Assembly (NCBI GenBank): GCA_000004695.1
Contig: CM000152.2
Location: forward strand, 4,096,001 to 4,160,000
Length of the DNA: 64,000 nucleotides
Reading direction: 5' to 3'
Source: Dictyostelium discoideum
Taxonomy: Eukaryota
Part shown: piece by piece, positions 2,849-17,107 of the stretch
How positions within the stretch are numbered: the first letter of the stretch is position 1
Layout: every line of letters begins with the position of its first letter
Translations under genes and position numbers: made by a program
Notes under the pieces: model-generated
What the model was told of the DNA's origin: nothing
The model's database searches: none
The model's input: only the letters and a program-made list of their open reading frames with translations

Positions 2849-3499
2849 TCATTCTGATAAACCAATGGTAATACACACTATGAGCACTAACAATAAGAAC
2901 ATTGAAAATAAAATAACGGAAAAAATTGCAAGTCCACGGGCAATTCTACTTTTTGATTTTAAATAAATCACATTTACACTATATATTATAATTTTAAATT
3001 TTAAATATTATTTTTAGAATTTTTTTTTTTTTTTTTTTTTTTTATTATTTTATACATACATCCAAGGAATAATGAAAAAGAAACCAGCAACGAATAAAAT
3101 TACTGCCGGAATAACATGTTCTTGATTTTGTTTGTACAATGAATGATGATAGATTTCCGGTGGTGGTATAATATTTTGAAAATCCCCTAACCCATATTGT
3201 GGTTGTTGTTGTTGTTGAAGATGGTTTCCATTTTCACATTGGTTATTTGAATTTAATTGTTTTTGTTGAGATTGGGGAACGTTTGATGGAACTTGAGCAT
3301 AAACAATTCCATTTTGTAATGGATTTGGTTGTTGTTGAGGGAAATATTCTGGGGGATTATTTAAAAATTGTTGATTTTGATTTTGATTTTTTTTTTTAGG
3401 ATCATAAGAAGGGATAAATTGATTTAAACTTTTTTTGTTATAAATATTTTCAAATTCCCCATTTAATTTTTGTTTTTTTTTTTTATTATTTTTTCCCAT
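2849..3499 (-). CDS. Small two-TM protein, tandem paralog A. Minus-strand join(2849..2978, 3060..3499), about 189 aa. It has a Q/N/P-rich N-terminus with a PPEY motif, TM1 (...[10 protein letters not shown]), a phase-2 intron, then the conserved exon VNVIYLKSKSRIARGLAIFSVILFSMFLLLVLIVCITIGLSE.
   Basis: The ORF 3050..3499 ends ...IIPWMYV*, but the sequence tgg at|gtatgt is a good donor. An acceptor tatatag at 2979..2980 (plus-strand ct) joins it in phase to a downstream open frame that is conserved in all four paralogs. Confidence 0.6.
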
Positions 3500-3513
3500 T
3501 TTTTTTGATTTTG

Positions 3514-3554
<41 letters not shown>

Positions 3555-3878
3555 TAATAATAATTATAATAAATAAATATTTATATATAATTCAAATTAA
3601 ATAAATAAATAAATTATAAAGAAAAAAAAAAAAAAACCACACAAATTAAATCTCATAAAAAAAAAAAAAAAAAATTAATTAAATAAATTAAAAAAAAAAA
3701 TACAAGCACAAATGGCTATTTTTATATTCAATAATTTCCCACAGGCATTTAAAATTCAAACATATTATTTTTGAAGACCACCATTTCTACAATAAGATAT
3801 TGCTGTATTAATTTTTTTTTATTTTTTATCTGATTTTCTAAAACTTATCACACCACCTCACCCCCAAAAAAAAACAAA

Positions 3879-3919
<41 letters not shown>

Positions 3920-3946
3920 ATAATAATATTAATATGATATAATTTA

Positions 3947-4399
3947 TTAATCAATAGTTGCGATCCCCCAAAATAATAATATAAATAAAGTTGATAGGAT
4001 TATTGAAAATACTGATATTATGCTGAACAAAATGAATGACGCAATACTAAATCTTCTAGCTATCTTATTATTACAATTAAGATGAATAATATTAACACTG
4101 TGATAAAATTAAGATTTAATTAAATTAATATTTTATTAATATAAAAAAATATTTTATTAAATATAAATTAAATATATATTAATTTACCTCCATGGTATAA
4201 TAAAGAAAAATCCTAAAATAAATAAAGTTAGTGAAATCCATGCTTTTTTTTGTTCATTTTTAATTTTAATTTCTTCTTCAATTCTCATTGGTTGAAAATT
4301 ATTAAAATAAGAATTTTGTAATTTTTCATCAACTTCATAATCTATTCCATTTTTATTTATATTTTTATTTAAAATTTCATTTTCTTCAATAAATGCCAT
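3947..4399 (-). CDS. Small two-TM protein, tandem paralog B. Minus-strand join(3947..4097, 4188..4399). It reads [10 protein letters not shown]...[11 protein letters not shown] | [50 protein letters not shown].
   Basis: Exon 1 ends cca tgg ag|gtaaat in phase 2. The acceptor cacag|t gives AGT, then the conserved [10 protein letters not shown] + helix exon. The NNFQP(M/L)(R/K)IE motif is shared with paralog C. Confidence 0.55.
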
Positions 4400-4954
4400 A
4401 ATTATAAAAAAAAAAAAAGTTTTATAAATTTTTTAAATAGAAAATTAAAAAAAAAAAAATATTTTAATAAAAATAGGATTTTACAATTAAAAAAAAATAA
4501 ATGAATAAAAATTAATATAAAAATAAAAATAAAAAAAAAGTCTTAAATTAATAAGATAAAATGGTAGTTATTAAAAAAAAAAAATTTAATAATAAAAAGA
4601 GGTGGTAACCAAATTAGTGGTAAATAGTGGTTTATTATTTATATTTTTTTAATTTGTTGGGGTATCTTAAAAAATAAAGAAAATTTTAACTATGCAAGAA
4701 ATTAATTTCTCCCAAATTTGAAAACACTATTTGTTAAACAAATTGTTAAAAACAATTTTGATTGTTCAATTTTAAAAAAAAAAAAAAAAAAATAATGGGA
4801 TTTTAAACCTTTTTTGAGAAACATTTATTTTTTTAAAGAAAAAAAAAAAAAAACATTCAATAATATTTGATTTAATTAAATCACAAAAATAATTTATAAA
4901 AAATACAAATTTTATTTAAATAACTTTTAAAAAAATCATTATGATTTTTGAAAT

Positions 4955-5399
4955 TTATCTATCTTCTCTATGACTATTATGCAAAGATGTGATTAAAAAA
5001 ATAAAAAAAATTACAAAAATCACTATTATGGCTATTGATAAACTAAACAAAACTACTGATGCGATACTAAATCCTCTTGCCATTTTATTTTTACTTTTTA
5101 TATTAATGACATTTATTCTATGAATATAGTTTTAAAAAAAAAAAAAAAATTTATGGTTAAAGGGGGGACTTTACTTTTTAAAATCAATTTATTAATACAT
5201 ACATCCAAGGAATTAATAATAAAAAACCCAAAACAAATAAAACTATTGAACATGTAACTTGTCTATCTTCTTTATCATTTTTTTCAATTTTTAATGGTTG
5301 AAAATTGTTTGAGTAGGATGGAAAATTAACACCTTCATCATACATTGGCATAAATTGACCATGGTCATTATTATTATTTTCTATATCATCTAATGTCAT
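4955..5399 (-). CDS. Small two-TM protein, tandem paralog C. Minus-strand join(4955..5117, 5203..5399). It reads MTLDDIENNN...VLFVLGFLLLIPW | I INVINIKSKNKMARGFSIASVVLFSLSIAIIVIFVIFFIFLITSLHNSHREDR*.
   Basis: The donor tgg at|gtatgt at 5202 and the acceptor ttcatag at 5118..5119 join in phase 2, restoring an open frame through the conserved ARGFSIAS exon. Confidence 0.6.
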
Positions 5400-5871
5400 T
5401 TTATTTTTTTTGTAATATATAATTTATTTAATTAATTTTAATTCTTTTTTTTTTGTTTTTGAAATGAATAGAAAAAAATAAAAAAATAAAAAAATAATCT
5501 TTAAATAGAAAAAAAAAAAAAAAAAAAAAAAAAAGAGAGAGAAATTCAAATATATACAAAAAAAAATGAAAATATTTAAATATTAATATTTGATTACAGT
5601 TTTTAATTTTTTAAATACTCAAGAAAATTTGCTATTGTTATTTTTTGATAACGCAATTAATGAGGAAAAAAAAAAAAAAACAAAATTTAGAAAAGTGTGG
5701 TTAGTTTTGGTTTTTTGGGCAATTCTTTATTAATGAAGATTAATCTATTCAATTTATCTTTTTTTTATAATTGTTTCAGAATACAATTAAAACTTTAATT
5801 TCATTATTATTTATTTTTTTATGGTATGTACAAAATTATTAATATCTTTTTATTTAAATTTTTTTTTTTTT

Positions 5872-6553
5872 TTATCCAGAAACTGATGAAATAACTGCTA
5901 TAAATAATAAAAGTATGAAAACAAAAGTAAAAATAATAGATAGATTGGATAAAGTTCTTGCATTTTTATTTCTACTTTTGAGCTATAATAATAATAATAA
6001 AAAATAATTAATAAAACAAACAATTAATTATTTTTTTTTTTATTTTCAAAAAAAAAAATTAATAAAATAATTATATACTTACAAATTTAATATTAACAAT
6101 CCAAAATATAACAGTAAAAAAACCAAGTATAAAAAATATTAAAGCAAATATAAAATGTTGTTGATCTTCATTATCACCATTCCTAACTATAATTTGAGGT
6201 AGTTGAGTATCACCATATGGAATTTGTTGTGTTTCATCACCCTGTATGGTGGTTGTTGTTGTTTGAGAATAATAAGTTATATGTAAATTTTCATCAAATT
6301 GTGCAGGTTGATTATTAAATAAATCATGAGGTGGATTTAAAGGAACTGTATCATATTGATTATCTAATTTATTAATTATTGGTTTATAAATTTCTAATTT
6401 TTCATTTTCATTATATCCCACATTTTCACCTGTTAATATTATATTTGCTGGTTTTGAAATTGATTGTGATAATGATAAACCTGATGACGGTGGTGGTGAT
6501 GGTGATACTTCATTATTGCTATAATTATTTTCATTATCAATTGGTATATTCAT
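5872..6553 (-). CDS. Small two-TM protein, tandem paralog D, larger at about 197 aa. Minus-strand join(5872..5982, 6083..6553). It reads ...FALIFFILGFFTVIFWIVNIKF | LKSRNKNARTLSNLSIIFTFVFILLLFIAVISSVSG*.
   Basis: A perfect donor aaa ttt|gtaagt at 6077..6082 in phase 0 joins the acceptor ttatag|ctc at 5983..5984. The second exon carries the same K-x-A-R-x-(F/L)-S motif plus a hydrophobic helix. Confidence 0.55.
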
Positions 6554-7244: not shown

Positions 7245-7542
7245 CTAATTAAAGTTTTTCATTATTTCTCTCCATTCTTTGTCTGCTTCAACAAAAGCTT
7301 CATAAATTGTTTTGCTAATAATGTTACCTTCGTTGTGAATGGTGGTGACAATCTTAAATGCAGTATCCCAAAATTGAGAAGCTAAAGCCAAATCCTCTTT
7401 GATATTTGTGAAATTTGGGAAAATCTCTTCCAATTGTTCCAATGATAAATTCTCTAATAAAAGACCTTTAACTAAAAGACCCATACTTGAACTTGGTTGA
7501 AGGAAAAATGGTAATCTTTAATTAAATAAATAAACAAATGAA

Positions 7543-7582
<40 letters not shown>

Positions 7583-7895
7583 ATTGGTTAATATTAATAT
7601 TAATTGATTTTTTTTTTTTTTTTTTTTTTTGGAAAATAATTAAAGTCAAAAAAATACATACCTTGTTGAAAATGTAAAGTACTCTGGTGGTGGTAATACA
7701 ATTCTATGAGTTAAAAAGTGAGATAATGCAGTCATTTCAATAAAATTTCTTAATGATTTGTAAAGAGTACGTGTAATTTCATGGAAACCCATTAAATCAT
7801 GATCAATTGGTCCACCCCATGGTGTATTCTTTTTTATAATATTAAAAATTAAAATAGAATTAAATAATAATATTAATATTTGTAATAAACTTATT

Positions 7896-7957
<62 letters not shown>

Positions 7958-8690
7958 AATAATAAAAGGTGGGAAAAAAAAAAAAAACTTACATCCAATT
8001 GACTTGGAATTAAACTTAAAACTCGAGAGATTATGAAAACAGATGGTTTTGAAGGTGGACCATCAAAAGTTGGTTTTGGAATAAAATTTAATCTTTCAAA
8101 AGTAAAAGAACCAGATCTTAATAATTCAATTAAAAGTAAAGTTGGTTCTTGTAATTTAGTATTTGAAACATTTTCTAAAAATTGACTATATTTCAAAGTT
8201 TTCTTTGAGGGATCATTACTAACATTATTGAAATATCCCATCATACTCATAGTTTGTGCTAATGTTATAAAAATACCTTCATTAATATCTCTAATCTAAA
8301 ATTTATAATTGAAAAATATTAATAAATTATTTATTTATTATTATTATTTATTATTTATTATTATTTATTATTAATAACTTACTGGTGATAATTGTTCAGG
8401 TGTATATAAAGTATCAAAATATTTTGAAACTAAGCCAAATGAAACAGCACTACCAGTACCTGTGTTTTCCTTAGCTAAATTTTGAATTGTTGTAATAATA
8501 TCAGATGGTACTTTAATGTAACCATTTGTGAATTCTTGATATTCATGTAAACTTGTAGTATGTGGCATATCAAATTCTTTTGGTTCGAACCATCTAACTG
8601 TTTTCTATAGGAATATAATAAAAATGATAAATAAATTAATAAATATTCTATACTATTTTAATCTATATAATCTATATAATCTATATAATC

Positions 8691-8742
<52 letters not shown>

Positions 8743-9019
8743 TTTACAACTGGTTTATGTTTTAAATCATCATTTAAACAAATTGAAAGTAAACCTAAAG
8801 TTTTTGTTCTAACATTCTTTAAATAATCCAACATTTTACAATACTCCTCTGATTCAATAGTTGGGAATGGTTCTGCTAAAACACCACTAATAAAATTATT
8901 GATAACTTGCGGACTAACTACACCTTGTGAAATATAAAAATAAACATCATTTGGTAATCTTGGTCCAAAAATTTGATTTAAAAAGTATGGTCTATATAAT
9001 ATGTAATTATCATAATAAT

Positions 9020-9061
<42 letters not shown>

Positions 9062-10308
9062 TATAATTTTCATAATTATTTGTATTATTGATATTAGTAT
9101 TTTTCATTATCTTTTCATTTCTGTGATTTGTTTAAAATTTTGAACAAAAAATTATAAATATATATATACCTATAATAAATATCTTTGAAAAGTGGTTCAC
9201 AAACATTTGATGAATAAAAGAGTAAATGATTATGAACTAAACATTTAGTTTTAATAAATTGTTCCATATAATTTTCATATTGTGGACTCATTGGTGGTAA
9301 ATAAGCTCTAATTGTTTCAATACCATTATGATAAGCTTTAACCATATCACAAACAGCTATTTATTTTTTTTATTTTTTTTTTTTACATAAATAACATATA
9401 ATAATAATTAGTAAATAAATTAATTAATAAAATAAATAATAAATAATAAATAATAAATAATAAATAATAAATAATAGATTACTTTTAAATGTACAATCTC
9501 TTCCTTGTGGTGAATTTAAGAATGGTAATTGTTGACAATATTCAAAACCACATAATAAACATGCATCAATGAATTGATCATGAGTTATACCTAAATCATA
9601 TAAAATTGATTTTAAATCTACCCAAGTGTATGAACCTTTTTCATAATCGATATCAGTGATTAAACGGTATACACCATATAATAATAATTCTTGTGATCCA
9701 TAAACTGCATTCAAATAATTCTTTTGGGATGGTTCTGAAAATAATGCTAATTGTGGTCCTGCAAAATATGGTGCTTCAAAAAATTCAATACCTTTTTGTT
9801 TAAAATATTGAATTATAAAATGTATGAATGATAATAATAAATTCTTTTCTATAATATAAATAAAATTATAATTATAAATAAAAAAAATATAAAAAAAATG
9901 AGTTAGTGGTGTGTTTATTGTTGAGATGTTGTTGTTTTGTTTTGTTTTTTTTTTTTTAATAACTTTTTTATACATACCAGAATCTTGAAAACATTTTTCA
10001 GCAGAAGAATATTGTGCTCTATAATAAGCATCCCATGCAGTTGATAATTTTTGAGAACGTTGATTAGTTTGTGCGAATCTTTCTTTTAATACACTAAGAC
10101 CATTGAATAAAAAGAATGGTTTAATATTTGCTTTTTTAAATTTATTTAATTCTTTTTCTAATGTATCAACTAATGTTAATGGTAAACCACCCATTGTTAT
10201 TTGAAATGGTTCTTGAACTGGTAATTTTAATAACCATGGTTTTGCTTCAATACCAATTCTGTAATCACTTAATACATCAATATTTGATGTTTTTGTATTT
10301 TTTTCCAA
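7245..10308 (-). CDS. Eight-exon gene of about 720 aa, an XPG/FEN1-fold MKT1-like protein with the catalytic Asp replaced (IKPFFLFNGL in place of a PIFVFDG-type site, and IEFFEAPYFAGPQLA in the XPG-I position). Minus-strand join(7245..7515, 7662..7828, 7993..8295, 8383..8604, 8748..9120, 9170..9356, 9483..9791, 9978..10308).
   Basis: All seven introns have gtaagt/gtatgt/gtaaat-type donors and AT-rich AG acceptors. The exon lengths sum to 2163 nt (721 codons) with every phase consistent. XPG-N-like and XPG-I-like motifs are present, but the assignment to the MKT1 family is from memory of motifs only. Confidence 0.55.
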
Positions 10309-10437
10309 AAATTCTAATAAATAATAATAAAAAACAAATAATAAAAAATAATAATAATAATAAAAAGAGGAGAGTTTGATATTAGTAAGATTAATTATAT
10401 TGATATTTATATATATATCTAAGTTAAATTTTATATG

Positions 10438-10484
<47 letters not shown>

Positions 10485-10975
10485 ATTACCATATAGTTTT
10501 GTTTTAAACATTTTTTTTTTTTAAAAAAAATTATTTTTATATAAAAAAATATAAAAATAGTTTTATTAGACAATTACTGAAAAAAATATCCTTTTTAATA
10601 TATTTTTTAAAAAATAAATTTGTGAAAAAAAAAAAAAAAAAAAAAATTAAAAAAAAATGAAATGAAAAAAAAAAAAAATAAAAAAAAAAAAAAATAAAAA
10701 AAAAAATTTTAAAATAGGGTCACTGATGATCACCACAAAAAAAAAAAAAATAAAATTTTACGAATTTCATTTTTGTAAAAAAAAAAAAAAAAAAATTTTT
10801 TTTCAATTTTTTTTTTTTTTTCATTTTTTTTCAATTTTTTTTATTTTTATTTTTTTTTTTTTCCTATTGTACGACGACATTATTTTTTTTATTATAAAAT
10901 ATACATATTTAGAAAATAATAATAATAATAATAACAATCTACAACAAATTAAAATAATAATAATAATAATAAAAA

Positions 10976-12033
10976 ATGGATATTGACGAACAAATTATTC
11001 AAGATTATTCAAATTCAAAATTAGATGTCGTTCAAATTGATGGTTTAGTTGTATTAAAAATCATTAAACAATGTAAAGAATATTTACCAGAATTAGTTCC
11101 AGGTCAATTATTAGGTTTAGATATTGGTACAAGTTTAGAAGTTTCCAATTGTTTCCCATTCCCACCACGTGATCAAGAAGATGAAAATAGTGAATCAATT
11201 GCAGATTATCAATTAGAGATGATGAGATTTTTACGTGAAGTCAATATCGATTCCAACACTGTCGGTTGGTATACACCAACTTATCTCAATTCATTCTTTA
11301 ATGAATCTGTCATTGAAACTCAATATAACTATCAAGCAACCATCAATCAAAAATGTGTTGTAATTGTTTATGATCCAATTAAAACTTCACAAGGTACACT
11401 CTCCTTAAAATGTTATCGTTTAACTCAATCTTTTATGGAATTATTTAAAGATCAATCTTTTTCAAGAGAAAGGTATATTATTATTATATTAATAATTTAT
11501 ATATATATATTTTATTATTTTTACTAATATAATTAATTTATTATTATTATTATTTATTTATTATTATTAGATTAGATCAAGCAAATTTAAGTTTTAATGA
11601 TATTTTTGAACAAATTCCAATTAAAATTCATAATTCACAATTAATTAATGCACTTTTATATGAATTTGATGGTGCTTCAAATAATTTGACAAATAGTTTC
11701 GATAGATTAAACATTAGCAATAATATTTATTTAGAAAAAGTCGTTGAAGGTATGACCGATTGTCTCGAATCATTGAATCAAGAATTGAATAAAGTTTATA
11801 TCAATCAAAGAAATATTCAAACTCAAAAGACTAACTACATTCAACAAAAGTTTTTAGAAGGTCAAAAAGTAGATGAAGATGAACTTGCCTCCATGATCAA
11901 ACCACTCAATCCACCTTCAAAATTAACTTCCCTCTTACTCACTAATCAAATCAATAACTATACCGATCAAATTCACTCTTTCAGTGGAAATAGTCTCACT
12001 AAATTAAGTTTATTAAAAGATTTACAAAAATAA
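10976..12033 (+). CDS. eif3H: Translation initiation factor eIF3 subunit H (MPN/Mov34 domain). Plus-strand join(10976..11472, 11571..12033), about 319 aa.
   Basis: The protein reads VQIDGLVVLKIIKQC...LEVSNCFPFP...YQLEMMRFLREVNIDSNTVGWYTPTY...VIVYDPIKTSQGTLSLKCYRLT, near-identical to the conserved core of human EIF3H. The donor ag|gtatat is at 11473 and the acceptor tattag is at 11569..11570. The second exon (SFNDIFEQIPIKIHNSQLINALLYEF...) matches the EIF3H continuation. Confidence 0.8.
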
Positions 12034-13357: not shown

Positions 13358-16300
13358 ATGTCATCGATTAGAGTAGTTTGTAGATTTAGACCACAAAATA
13401 AGTTAGAATTAGCGCAAGGTGGTGATTCGATTGTATCGATAGCACCAGAAAATGATAGTGTCACAATCAATGGTTCAGAATCAAATCATTCATTTTCATT
13501 TGATTATGTTTTTCCATCAAACACAACACAAAGAGATGTTTATGATCATGCTGCAAAACCAGTCATTGAAGATATTATGGCAGGTTATAATGGCACTCTT
13601 TTTGTATATGGTCAAACTGGTTCAGGTATGTACATATATATATACATATTTATTTAATATCTTTATAAAATTTACTAATATTAACAAATAATAAATAAAT
13701 AGGTAAAACATTTAGTATGACAGGTATTAATGATCCAAATGGTGATCAAGAGTTAAGAGGTATAGTACCAAGAATGATTGAAACAGTTTTTGAATTTATA
13801 TCGAATGCAGATGAAAATATAGAATTTATTGTTAAAGCAAGTTATATTGAGATCTATATGGAAAGAATTAGGGATCTCTTAGATACAAGAAAAGATAATT
13901 TAAAAGTTAGAGAAGAAAAAGGTAAAGGTGTTTGGGTAGAAGGTACATCTGAAGTTTATATTTATAGAGAAGAAGATATTTTAGATGTTATTAACACTGG
14001 TATTAGTAATAGAGCAATTGCTGAAACAAGTAAGATATATATATAATTATTATTTATATAAATAATACATATACACTAGAAATTATGTTAATGATATTAT
14101 TATTATTATTATTATTATAGGAATGAATGCAGAATCATCTAGAAGTCATAGTATTTTTATATTAACAATTCAACAAAAGAATTTAAAGGTTGGATCAATT
14201 AAAACAGGTAAATTATATTTAGTAGATTTGGCAGGATCAGAGAAAATTAGTAAAACAGGTGCACAAGGTACAACATTGGATGAAGCTAAAATGATTAACA
14301 AATCATTATCATCATTGGGTAATGTTATTAATGCATTGACCGATGGTAAATCGACACATATTCCATACAGAGATTCAAAATTAACTAGAGTTTTACAAGA
14401 ATCGTTAGGTGGTAATTCAAGAACCACTCTAATTATCAATTGTTCACCAAGTAGTTATAATGAAGCTGAAACAATCTCAACATTACGTTTTGGTAGTAGA
14501 GCAAAGAATATCAAGAATAAAGCAAAGATTAATCAAGAAAGAAGTGCTGCTGAATTGAAAATACTTTTATCAAAAGCTGAAAATGAAATTGAAAATCTTA
14601 AAGGTTATATTAAAGAATTAGAGACTGTTTCAGGTGTAACTGTTTCAAATTTAAAAAGTAGTGGTAGTGGTAGTGGTAGTGGTAGTGGTAGTAGTAGTAG
14701 TAGTAGTGGTAGTAGTGGTGGTAGTGGTAGTGGTGGTAGTAGTAATTTATCAAATTCAGTTAATTCAACTTCAAATTTAAATACCTCATCAAATACTTCA
14801 TCATCAAATGTAAATGCAAATGCAAATGTAATAACAACAAGTGTTTCAGCACCAACATCACCAAAAGATACAGAATTAATTAAAGTTTTACAAGAGAAAT
14901 GTATACAATTAGAGAAACAATTATTTAAAAAAGAAGAGGAGAAGAAAGAAATATTAGAACAATTGGAACAACAACAAGAACAAATTCAAGATAAGGATCA
15001 AGAGATTGAGGGATTGAATTCAATGATTGAGAGTTCGAATAATATTAATTCTTTATATCAAAATAGTACAAATGAAAATAGTGTATTGAATGTACAATTA
15101 TCTGAATTAAAATTAGCACTTGAAAAAAGTAGATTCGAAGCTACTGAACAATCTTTAACCATTGAAGGATTGAATGAAGAGAATCAATCAATTAAATCTC
15201 AATTGGAGATTTTAAAAGATCGTATTGCACAAAGTGGTGATTCCTCAATCGCTTCATTAGTACCATCAACTCCAAAATCCTCAGCTGAAATGGATCCATT
15301 AGCTACCGCTTCAAAACATGCAGATGAATGGAATGAAAAAGCTGAACAATTAAAATTATTACAAAGAACACCTTCAAAAGCTGTCGGTTCTTCAAAATCA
15401 AATACTGCAACTAGTTCACCAATAATTTCTTTAAATATTTCTGAATCTGATAATATTGGTTCTGGTGCAACAACAACAACTAATAATAATAATGCAACTA
15501 TTACACCTGCTACAAGTAGTAATAATAATGTTGAACAACAACAACAACAAGTTGAAGAACTTTTACCATCAGTAAATGAACAATTATTAGAAAGTGAAAA
15601 TCAAAAATTACAAAAGAGAATTCAAGAGATTGAATTAGAGTTTGAAACGTATAAGATTGCCAAAGAAAATTTAACAATGCAAAAAGATTTAGAGATTGAA
15701 CAATTATTAGAGAGTCAACGTATTAGTAGTAGTTTTGTTGTTGATCCACGTAACTTGGATGATGAATTGCCAGCAGAGATGATGTTACAAGCTGAACAAA
15801 TTCGTAAATTGATTGCAGAAAACTCTGAACAAAAAGTACATTTCGAGGCAACAAAGAATGAAAACTCGAAATTAAAGAATAGAATTGAAATGATTGAAGA
15901 GGAGACTAGACAACGTATGGAGGAGGAATTGAATGTATTGCGTGAACAAACCAATCAGAAACTATCGGAATTTGGGTCATTGAAAGAATCTTTGATTAGA
16001 GATTTAGAGAATAGATGTCAGAAAGTTATAGATCTAGAATTGGTTTTGGACGAATTACAAGACCGTATCGTGACTTTGAACGAGCGTCTAAAGAGAGTTA
16101 ATAAACCTGGTGGTGGCGATCAGGAGGCTGCTTTCGTTCAATCGAAATTGGATGAAATCACCGCTGTAAAACATCAATTGGTCATTGAGAATAATAAACA
16201 CAAGACAGAGGTTGAACGTTTGAAAAAGTTATTATCACATCGTGGTGAACATATTTTAATTTTAGAGAAAACAATGGCAATCAATCAAGAGAGTCTTTTC

Positions 16301-16714
16301 AAATTGGCTTTAAATCATAATGCATTAACCATTGAGCATGATCGTGCAAAGAATGAATTGGAGAAATTAAATAATTTATTATCTCAAGTTGGTGTCGATG
16401 CTCAAAATACTGGTGGTGCTCGTGTTGCTAGAGTTATTAGAGGTGGTGGTGGTAATAATCAATTAAAAAAATTTAATCATTCATCATCATCATCTACTTC
16501 ATCATCATCAGCTTTAAATCATTCATCTATAAATAATAATCATACAACTCCAACTCCATTATCTGCAAATCTTTATAGTAATACAAAAAGAAGTACAAAA
16601 GAATTAAATACTGGTGTAAAAGCTGAACCTTTATCATTATCTGGTTCTCCATTTAATACTTCAATACCTTCTTCTCCAAATCATACAAGTAGTAATAATA
16701 TTAATAACAATAGC

Positions 16715-16748
<34 letters not shown>

Positions 16749-17107
16749 TAGGTAATAGTGGTAATATTGGTGGTGTTGGTAATAATAATAGTAGTATAAG
16801 TAATAGTAATAATAATAGTAGTAGTAATTTAAACGCAAATTTAAATGGTAATACACCAGTTAAAATTACATCTGAAAATAGTTCATCTTCTTTATGGAAT
16901 ATATTTAAAAAGAAATCACCATCTTCAACACCACCTAGTTCAACAAATAATTTATCACCACAATCACCACAAACCCCATCTCATTTAAGTGCTGATGGAA
17001 GTGGTAATATTTCACCAAACCTTTCCCCACCAATTCCTGTCAATTTCTCATATACTCCTGCAGTTGTAACATCTTCAACAATTAACAAAGATCAACAAAA
17101 AGATTAG
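13358..17107 (+). CDS. kif3: Kinesin-1 (conventional kinesin heavy chain). Plus-strand join(13358..13625, 13703..14029, 14121..17107) gives 1193 codons.
   Basis: It opens [15 protein letters not shown]. The P-loop GQTGSG|KTFSM is split by intron 1 (g|gtatgt ... aaatag|gt). Switch regions NAESSRSHS and LVDLAGSEK are present, followed by a neck, a long coiled coil, a (GGT AGT)n Gly/Ser linker and an S/N-rich tail. The 1193-aa length matches my recollection of DdKif3, but I cannot fully exclude kif5. Confidence 0.75.

Follow-up and report, generated by a model that had tools for sequence, protein, structure and literature searches.

A nuclease-fold Mkt1 orthologue with a degenerate active site in Dictyostelium discoideum

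[quoted passage not shown] In yeast and trypanosomes, as the initial annotation of the locus rightly stated, Mkt1 acts post-transcriptionally together with Pbp1/ataxin-2, the complex promoting expression or stability (PMC12345631, PMC3985637). The Mkt1/Pbp1 complex was demonstrated biochemically and is destabilised by the exchange G30D, with the Mkt1-binding region of yeast Pbp1 located at aa 491-549 and defined among yeasts only (Caballero et al., 2025, PMC12345631). Partners in four other lineages comprise Pbp1/ataxin-2, LSM12, PABP and RNA-binding proteins (PMC12345631, PMC7026591, PMC3985637), and for T. brucei alone an H(N/D)PY motif has been described by which RNA-binding proteins recruit MKT1 (PMC3985637). 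Mkt1 proteins without catalytic acids have already been published (Singh 2014; Taglini 2020), Singh et al. also including an 'amoeba' homologue. The essential acidic residues are absent from Mkt1s (PMC3985637); S. pombe and S. cerevisiae Mkt1 keep just two of six, and the S. pombe exchanges D34A and D201A, at two retained PIN-core residues, caused no phenotype and left Mkt1 function intact (PMC7026591). As animal Mkt1-like proteins, Caballero et al. (2025) proposed ASTE1 and FAM120A-C; by that description, they combine a PIN-like N-terminal domain with a long C-terminal half and are Foldseek matches of yeast Mkt1 with reportedly poor sequence similarity, FAM120A being a stress-granule RNA-associated protein (PMC12345631). 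ASTE1 and FAM120B are reported to be active nucleases in work cited in PMC12345631.

The window, i.e., the whole analysed stretch of 64,000 nucleotides of D. discoideum DNA, carries a multi-exon minus-strand gene with its 3' end at 7245 (TAG stop 7247-7245). The strand, the interrupted structure and this end had been recognized before, whereas the eight exons, the start at 10308 and the length of 720 aa then proposed have to be replaced by nine exons with an open CDS of 2118 nt and a protein of 705 aa. Position 10308 is merely the TTG start of a mechanical open reading frame; exon 2 truly starts at 10313, preceded by a TTATTAG acceptor, and the start codon is provided by a 22-nt exon 1 (10511-10490, ATGTTTAAAACAAAACTATATG followed by GTAATG). 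All eight introns are of the GT..AG type, and the exons have a GC content of 27% vs 9.7% in the introns. The spliced N-terminus MFKTKLYEFLEKN is the same as in deposited D. discoideum models, its first eight residues, MFKTKLYE, recur unchanged in database entries of D. discoideum and D. cf. discoideum, and M1 is an invariant column of alignment A1. From the database protein P0022, the prediction differs solely at residue 589 (F here, L in P0022). Likewise, tblastn blocks of the D. purpureum orthologue stop at exon boundaries of the model (ends at 8748 and 7993, start at 8604). Both peptides quoted in the initial annotation are present, IKPFFLFNGL as residues 71-80 (window 10125-10096) and IEFFEAPYFAGPQLALF as residues 140-156 (window 9789-9739). 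The features are as follows:

10490 to 10511, minus strand: exon 1, aa 1-8, with ATG at 10511-10509 and donor TATG/GTAATG
9978 to 10313, minus strand: exon 2, aa 8-120, XPG-N-like segment (spliced model, Pfam XPG_N, ligand alignment)
10254-10252, minus strand: exon 2 residue G28
10248-10246, minus strand: exon 2 residue E30, equivalent of FEN1 D34
10104-10102, minus strand: exon 2 residue N78, equivalent of FEN1 D86
within exon 2: residues E85 and R93, equivalents of FEN1 K93 and R100
9483 to 9848, minus strand: exon 3, aa 120-242, XPG-I-like segment and degenerate H2TH
9765-9763, minus strand: exon 3 residue F148, equivalent of FEN1 E158
9759-9757, minus strand: exon 3 residue G150, equivalent of FEN1 E160
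9696-9694, minus strand: exon 3 residue S171, equivalent of FEN1 D179
9690-9688, minus strand: exon 3 residue E173, equivalent of FEN1 D181
9543-9541, minus strand: exon 3 residue E222, equivalent of FEN1 D233
within exon 3: residues 228-231, PFLN, where nucleases have the RGIG hairpin
9170 to 9356, minus strand: exon 4, aa 242-304, helical region after H2TH, inside the EXO1-like core
8748 to 8991, minus strand: exon 5, aa 304-385, bulk of MKT1_N (Pfam MKT1_N, tblastn block end)
8383 to 8604, minus strand: exon 6, aa 386-459, end of MKT1_N and weakly conserved linker, donor CCA/GTAAGT
7993 to 8295, minus strand: exon 7, aa 460-560, start of MKT1_C (Pfam MKT1_C, tblastn block end)
7662 to 7828, minus strand: exon 8, aa 561-616, MKT1_C including F589 (spliced model, tblastn)
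7245 to 7515, minus strand: exon 9, aa 616-705 and TAG stop, C-terminal helices of MKT1_C
10512 to 10975, no strand: intergenic region of about 464 bp, very AT-rich (GC 6-13%)

The 705-aa protein consists of a complete FEN1/EXO1-type PIN-like core with H2TH (about residues 1-305), followed by MKT1_N and MKT1_C, which are specific to the family. The two latter domains score far above their Pfam cut-offs of 27, MKT1_C (PF12246) with 156.5 bits and 9.6e-46 at residues 474-697, spanning profile positions 2-238 of 240, and MKT1_N (PF12247) with 83.6 bits and 1.3e-23 at residues 306-391. In the core, XPG_N reaches its gathering cut-off of 22 with 22.0 bits (residues 6-95, E 2.4e-4), and XPG_I, matching in its C-terminal part only, remains at 20.0 bits vs a cut-off of 24.9. 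The fold is that of DNA repair nucleases. A family profile matched human EXO1 at 2.4e-20 in an alignment reaching profile position 301, which, like the two MKT1 domain scores, lies far outside what chance would give. A FEN/XPG-type PIN-like core is present N-terminal to the MKT1 domains, in line with the XPG fold first proposed. BLASTP against the named S. paradoxus Mkt1p (P0175, which shares 93% identity with Mkt1 of the S. cerevisiae type) aligned residues 19-395 at 3e-20 and, in collinear order, residues 545-630 at 1e-3. The earlier assignment to the non-catalytic Mkt1 branch is upheld by the MKT1_N and MKT1_C scores, this collinear match and a yeast-like pattern of four lost and three kept ligands. 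A word-indexed search with the family profile yielded only 14 proteins; the wider family was seen in an exhaustive search of cluster representatives, 458 of which matched at E<=1e-30. The D. firmibasis orthologue P0001 (92% identity) stood in for the D. discoideum protein in this search and in the structure prediction, whose model is moderate in quality (pLDDT 74). The yeast reference was an 830-aa cluster representative, 99% identical to the S. cerevisiae query and retrieved along with named Mkt1p sequences, with database sequences being analysed throughout. In public databases, dictyostelid orthologues are already annotated with MKT1_N and MKT1_C.

In FEN1/EXO1, seven carboxylates hold the two catalytic metal ions, and the H2TH G-I-G hairpin of such nucleases binds K+ and the DNA backbone. 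Two independent alignments place E30/N78/F148/G150/S171/E173/E222 opposite the FEN1 ligands D34/D86/E158/E160/D179/D181/D233, with a one-residue uncertainty at ligand site 5, where either Ser171 or a gap stands, both non-acidic. Hence four of the seven ligands are lost and three remain acidic, all as Glu, so that the claim of catalytic acids replaced throughout was slightly overstated; proper alignment does not restore an intact set. Asn and Phe had been named correctly as substitutes (Asn78, Phe148). The supposed Gln is not a ligand equivalent, since Gln172 and Gln152 are neighbours of ligand sites and the true further substitutes are Gly150 and Ser171. Sites 2-5 comprise all ligands of metal 1 except D34. 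At most three of the seven sites are acidic in any of 109 family representatives; sites 3-5 are acidic in 0-3% of them, and the three retained positions are acidic family-wide in 97%, 72% and 70%. Twelve of 14 dictyostelid sequences have Glu at ligand 1, whereas Cavenderia and 81 of 82 Saccharomycetes have Asp. The helical arch, whose basic pair is K93/R100 in human FEN1 and K85/R92 in human EXO1, carries Glu85 instead of the Lys (Glu/Asp in 16/16 dictyostelids) and retains the Arg as R93, both read from a gappy part of the alignment. Moreover, the H2TH hairpin R-G-I-G is replaced by P228-F229-L230-N231 (family consensus P-[PY]-L-x) and is lost throughout the Mkt1 family. Because four ligands, the arch Lys and the hairpin are replaced, two-metal phosphodiester cleavage and canonical gripping of duplex DNA are not expected by the established FEN1/EXO1 mechanism, and the core is predicted to be a pseudo-nuclease. 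The three remaining acids may still permit the binding of a single metal ion or of another ligand. Scaffold motifs by the old site are kept (ikP..vFxG, APy.a.aQ, G.ey), with G79, P146, G220 and Q152 conserved at 98-100%. Neither the net charge nor the pI of the core was informative (pI 6.5 for residues 1-300, 6.1 for FEN1 1-333).

Compared with Mkt1, the protein shares collinear sequence similarity, the presence of an ataxin-2/Pbp1 partner family in the organism and the four-part architecture of XPG-N-like, XPG-I-like/H2TH, MKT1_N and MKT1_C segments (PMC12345631). As in verified yeast Mkt1, which has D/N/S/W/P/D/D at the seven sites, ligand sites 2-5 are lost and sites 1, 6 and 7 retained, and an invariant Gly stands two residues ahead of ligand 1 (yeast G30, here G28). 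Unlike yeast Mkt1, it has 705 instead of 830 aa, lacks both the long Ser/Thr-rich insertion after FVFNG and the insertion before MKT1_N, keeps its three acids as Glu instead of Asp, and has Phe/Gly instead of Ser/Trp at sites 3 and 4. Set against human EXO1, FEN1, XPG and GEN1, the Rad2/XPG structure-specific 5' nucleases, the protein has only three of the seven metal ligands left, the arch Lys has become Glu and the H2TH G-I-G hairpin P-F-L-N, and about 400 C-terminal residues with MKT1_N and MKT1_C are additional.

The gene is under purifying selection. Identity to the orthologues of D. firmibasis, D. purpureum and Cavenderia amounts to 92%, 71% and 51%, the XPG-I-like region of exon 3 being best conserved in distant comparisons (44-51% identity) and the linker of exon 6 only 5-33% identical to non-Dictyostelium homologues. 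The ligand substitutions are ancient and stable, as fungi share them. Gly28 is Gly in 14/14 dictyostelid and 82/82 Saccharomycetes sequences, and in the broad representatives 112 of 115 have Gly (89) or Ala (23) in this column; it corresponds to yeast G30, the site of the G30D loss-of-function polymorphism, with the D. discoideum protein having the ancestral Gly. The neighbouring open reading frame matches JAB/MPN and eIF3h_C and represents a divergently transcribed eIF3h-like gene, and D. purpureum shows the same divergent arrangement, with the gene order kinesin, eIF3h, MKT1-like conserved.

We consider it likely that this D. discoideum Mkt1 orthologue, with its pseudo-nuclease core, serves as a non-catalytic ataxin-2/Pbp1 adaptor modulating selected mRNAs. 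By homology to the Mkt1 proteins of yeast, fission yeast, Cryptococcus and trypanosomes, it would most likely be a cytoplasmic adaptor without catalysis, binding the ataxin-2/Pbp1 homologue Q55DE7, which features LSm, LSmAD and PAM2 (PMC12898128; PMC10891935). Via ataxin-2 it would reach PABP-bound mRNPs and thereby influence how stable selected mRNAs are or how they are translated. The degenerate core would be kept as a binding scaffold, since no other part of the protein is as strongly conserved. From the synteny with D. purpureum and the occurrence of an ataxin-2 homologue in D. discoideum, we infer an orthologous non-catalytic Pbp1/ataxin-2 partner working on mRNA. Gene structure, family membership, fold, the ligand substitutions with their pattern across the family, purifying selection and synteny are direct observations, whereas absence of nuclease activity, ataxin-2 partnership and an mRNA-regulatory role in Dictyostelium are predictions. 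A conversion of the dead cleft into a conserved pocket, accepting a short peptide motif of RNA-binding partners, the helices with which ataxin-2 binds Mkt1 or the 5' end of an RNA, is a rather unlikely extension. Such a pocket would be formed by E30, E173, E222, the invariant Gly28 and family-specific conserved residues, e.g., W101, Q152 and the loop P43-F44...G49-G50-x-P52, which is conserved, of low confidence and probably flexible.

The retained acids raise the question of whether the protein has kept nuclease activity on RNA or DNA through a reduced, non-canonical site, e.g., with one metal held by E30, E173 and E222. Their conservation in the family, the preserved scaffold of the old site with its four nearly invariant residues, and the nuclease activity reported for the structurally related ASTE1 and FAM120B in work cited in PMC12345631 would be compatible with it. 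Nevertheless, sites 2-5, which include the metal 1 ligands other than D34, have given way to Asn, Phe, Gly and Ser, arch Lys and hairpin are gone, the S. pombe exchanges D34A and D201A leave Mkt1 functional (PMC7026591), and the literature search found no nuclease activity reported for any Mkt1, which makes residual catalysis very improbable. A similarly slim prospect is that of a non-catalytic factor in DNA damage or replication stress, engaging TFIIH/NER components instead of mRNPs, as would suit the repair-nuclease fold and the Magnaporthe MoMkt1, which interacts with the TFIIH subunit MoTfb2 and whose mutants are hydroxyurea-sensitive (PMC12380227). That study demonstrates no nuclease or DNA-binding activity, and its phenotypes could be indirect expression effects (PMC12380227). 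Besides, the hairpin that grips DNA is missing, as is the arch Lys, and the partners in four other lineages belong to the Pbp1/ataxin-2, LSM12, PABP and RNA-binding protein circle.

There is little probability, too, that the main role in Dictyostelium lies in small-RNA (RNAi) post-transcriptional silencing, in the style of fission yeast, rather than in mRNA stabilisation or activation. Dictyostelium does have Dicer-like, Argonaute and RdRP genes; still, the sequence gives nothing that separates RNAi from the general adaptor model, of which silencing is a sub-case and no true alternative, and the yeast and trypanosome complex promotes expression or stability. Loss of catalytic residues, an XPG_I score below and an XPG_N score exactly at the gathering cut-off might also suggest a former nuclease gene drifting to a pseudogene. 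This reading was rejected as effectively refuted by conservation and synteny and has next to no probability: the 705-codon frame is intact over nine exons with canonical splice sites, the three dictyostelid orthologues are 92%, 71% and 51% identical, no region is better conserved than the degenerate core, and its substitutions are shared with fungi and ancient.

That this XPG-fold Mkt1 protein has lost catalytic acids restates a published family property. The practical value is modest, comprising the gene model corrected to nine exons, the first of them 22 nt long, and a map of the pseudo-active site at the level of single residues. The map concerns a model organism for whose Mkt1 protein the literature search found no study. 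Dictyostelium offers a genetically tractable switch from starvation to development and a long-polyQ ataxin-2, and its Mkt1/ataxin-2 module could be convenient for probing how nutrient state is coupled to mRNA fate. The AT-rich intergenic region at 10512 to 10975 is presumed to be a bidirectional promoter shared with the divergent eIF3h-like gene.

The gene, its motifs and the degeneracy of its active site, as described in the initial annotation, are real, with exon count, start, length and one of three named residues in need of correction. Linking of minus-strand ORF blocks across GT..AG boundaries resulted in an open frame of 2118 nt in nine exons encoding 705 residues, instead of eight exons and 720 residues:

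10511-10490, minus strand, Mkt1 exon 1 (22 nt, carrying the ATG at 10511)
10313-9978, minus strand, Mkt1 exon 2
9848-9483, minus strand, Mkt1 exon 3
9356-9170, minus strand, Mkt1 exon 4
8991-8748, minus strand, Mkt1 exon 5
8604-8383, minus strand, Mkt1 exon 6
8295-7993, minus strand, Mkt1 exon 7
7828-7662, minus strand, Mkt1 exon 8
7515-7245, minus strand, Mkt1 exon 9

Position 10308, formerly taken as the start, is a TTG at which the mechanical ORF opens; the exon carrying the true ATG is separated from exon 2 by an intron of 176 nt. The locus is very AT-rich, featuring about 27% GC in exons versus about 10% in introns. The nine-exon model is independently supported by the 705-aa database protein P0022 (sole mismatch L versus F589), by an N-terminus identical in deposited proteins of D. 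discoideum, D. cf. discoideum, D. firmibasis and D. citrinum, by four exon boundaries at which tblastn blocks of the orthologues from D. purpureum and Cavenderia end exactly, and by the lack of a second Mkt1 copy in the window in tblastn searches with orthologues. Codon 589 (7744-7742, TTT), located within the Mkt1-family Pfam domain MKT1_C, encodes Phe, versus Leu (...SLRN[L]IEMT...) in every other dictyostelid orthologue examined, which could reflect polymorphism between strains or a difference in sequencing. Besides, long, perfect or almost perfect microsatellites occupy introns 1 (A46, 10438-10483), 4 ((GAT/ATC)x17.7, 9009-9061), 5 ((ATA)x17, 8692-8742) and 7 (T56, 7898-7953). Being in frame with exon 5, the GAT repeat yields a poly-Asp stretch in mechanical ORF 8658-9107; orthologues join ...KDIYYR directly to PYFLNQ..., without this segment. 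Such an in-frame repeat could be a trap for gene callers.

The proposed assignment to the non-catalytic Mkt1 branch was borne out by domain content, BLASTP and a ligand pattern in common with yeast Mkt1. In Pfam, MKT1_C (residues 474-697, 156.5 bits, E 9.6e-46) and MKT1_N (residues 306-391, 83.6 bits, E 1.3e-23) lie far over their cut-off of 27; of the nuclease-core domains, XPG_N (22.0 bits) exactly equals its cut-off and XPG_I (20.0 bits) falls below 24.9. BLASTP against a named Mkt1p (S. paradoxus) matched residues 19-395 at 3e-20, with a collinear 1e-3 segment in MKT1_C. The low Pfam score of the nuclease core is misleading, given the matches to FEN1 (1.5e-7) and EXO1 (4.7e-7) in a PDB search with the single sequence and, with a 12-sequence family profile, to about 290 residues of human EXO1 at 2.4e-20. 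An exhaustive HMMER search yielded 458 cluster representatives at E<=1e-30, indicating a large family, and dictyostelid members already bear MKT1 domain annotations in public databases. The window protein is an ordinary orthologue of this known pseudo-nuclease family.

The former active site was mapped against human FEN1 (D34, D86, E158, E160, D179, D181, D233; sequence verified as PDB 5zod_A) and human EXO1 (D30, D78, E150, D152, D171, D173, D225; sequence from the family-profile alignment). All three approaches agree: pairwise alignments, the profile alignment, and a profile-anchored alignment that combined 255 family proteins with both nucleases.

Table. Equivalents of FEN1 metal ligands in the window protein, with the acidic share among representatives of 50%-identity clusters.
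Site 1: D34, window E30; 97%
Site 2: D86, window N78; 15%
Site 3: E158, window F148; 0%
Site 4: E160, window G150; 1.5%
Site 5: D179, window S171 (one-residue gap beside it in one alignment, non-acidic either way); 2.8%
Site 6: D181, window E173; 72%
Site 7: D233, window E222; 70%

Four of the seven ligands are lost and three retained as Glu, so the general claim of replaced catalytic positions went too far. The reported Asn and Phe correspond to N78 and F148; the reported Gln was mistaken, as Q172 and Q152 only adjoin ligand positions. Moreover, the helical-arch Lys (human FEN1 K93, EXO1 K85) is Glu85 in the window protein, and P-F-L-N replaces R-G-I-G in the H2TH hairpin, by which the nucleases hold K+ and the DNA backbone, the position being P-x-L-x throughout the Mkt1 family. 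None of the 109 representatives having all seven columns features more than three acidic residues. Likewise, verified yeast Mkt1 (D/N/S/W/P/D/D) has lost the same four ligands and retained the same three. At site 1, 12 of 14 dictyostelid sequences carry Glu, against Asp in Cavenderia and nearly all fungi. This Glu is the sole local twist, the degenerate active site being a family property and not a Dictyostelium peculiarity. That the protein is an Mkt1 and that catalytic residues have been lost can be considered demonstrated. The loss is already published and thus not new: Mkt1 proteins were stated to be without the essential acidic residues (Singh et al., PMC3985637), only two of six PIN-core residues are conserved in Mkt1 of S. 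pombe and S. cerevisiae, and D34A and D201A did not impair Mkt1 function (Taglini et al., 2020, PMC7026591).

In alignments with distant homologues, identity peaks at 44-51% in the XPG-I-like segment (residues 138-232), the best conserved part of the protein; it is 22-30% in XPG-N, MKT1_N and MKT1_C and 5-14% in the linkers. Residues of the scaffold motifs surrounding the old catalytic site (G79, F77, A145, P146, Q152, G220) are 93-100% conserved, and W101 exemplifies Mkt1-specific invariant residues. G28 is invariant across dictyostelids and yeasts; Gly to Asp at the equivalent position in S288C yeast destabilised the Mkt1/Pbp1 complex (PMC12345631). Given the conservation of these motifs and of G28, the nuclease-like core appears to be a conserved scaffold for binding. 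The motif P-F-x(4)-G-G-x-P (residues 43-52, 10209-10180) is invariant in the 12-sequence alignment, G49, G50 and P52 being 86-97% conserved in the broad family, and residues 43-50 have a pLDDT below 50 in the AlphaFold prediction. This conserved, probably flexible loop next to the old catalytic site is a candidate partner-binding element. The helical C-terminal half may resemble a winged-helix/ratchet module, or this likeness may be a helical-bundle artefact; its single-sequence fold reached pLDDT 35, its profile gave no PDB sequence match, and the literature search found no mention of such a likeness.

In S. cerevisiae, an Mkt1-Pbp1/ataxin-2 complex was demonstrated biochemically and needs the MKT1_C region; Mkt1 is polysome-associated and promotes expression of Puf3-target mRNAs (PMC12345631). 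T. brucei MKT1 joins PBP1, LSM12 and RNA-binding proteins with H(N/D)PY motifs, and mRNA tethered to it is stabilised (PMC3985637). S. pombe Mkt1 functions in post-transcriptional silencing that depends on RNAi (PMC7026591). D. discoideum possesses a complete ataxin-2 homologue, Q55DE7 (PMC12898128), and ataxin-2 LSmAD orthologues (PMC10891935) occur in the same four dictyostelid genera as Mkt1 orthologues. On the basis of these roles and of dictyostelid ataxin-2, the window protein is most likely a non-catalytic adaptor, which would dock onto ataxin-2-containing mRNPs and modulate mRNA stability or translation; for Dictyostelium, partnership and mRNA role are inferred.

A role centred on RNAi, as would parallel S. 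pombe Mkt1, has less support than this adaptor function, and the same applies to a TFIIH-linked role in DNA damage, for which Magnaporthe provides a precedent (PMC12380227), and to a residual nuclease of non-canonical type. Conservation together with synteny rules out that the gene is a decaying pseudogene.

The neighbourhood comprises the following features:

3050-6553, minus strand, four tandem small ORFs (149, 71, 71 and 160 aa)
10976-12033, plus strand, eIF3h-like gene, MPN/JAB-domain protein (Pfam JAB 3.5e-15, eIF3h_C 4.8e-6)
13358-17107, plus strand, kinesin gene of several exons, the first with a Pfam Kinesin motor match (1.3e-19)

The D. purpureum orthologue lies in the matching order kinesin, eIF3h and MKT1-like, with the latter divergent from eIF3h; therefore, the window Mkt1 gene is its positional orthologue. 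About 464 bp (10512-10975) separate the ATGs of the divergent eIF3h-like and Mkt1 genes, a head-to-head pair also found in D. purpureum. That a translation-initiation subunit and an mRNA-regulatory adaptor have a presumed promoter region in common may be coincidence. The kinesin, syntenic with the one adjoining eIF3h in D. purpureum, features a long, coiled-coil, Ser/Asn-rich tail. The small ORFs have unrelated N-terminal parts and a common C-terminal hydrophobic tail, LF(V/I)LGFFFIIPW(M)YV, with invariant F, G, F, I and W. The two ORFs tested gave no Pfam match, and the four look like a local family of putative tail-anchored small membrane proteins.
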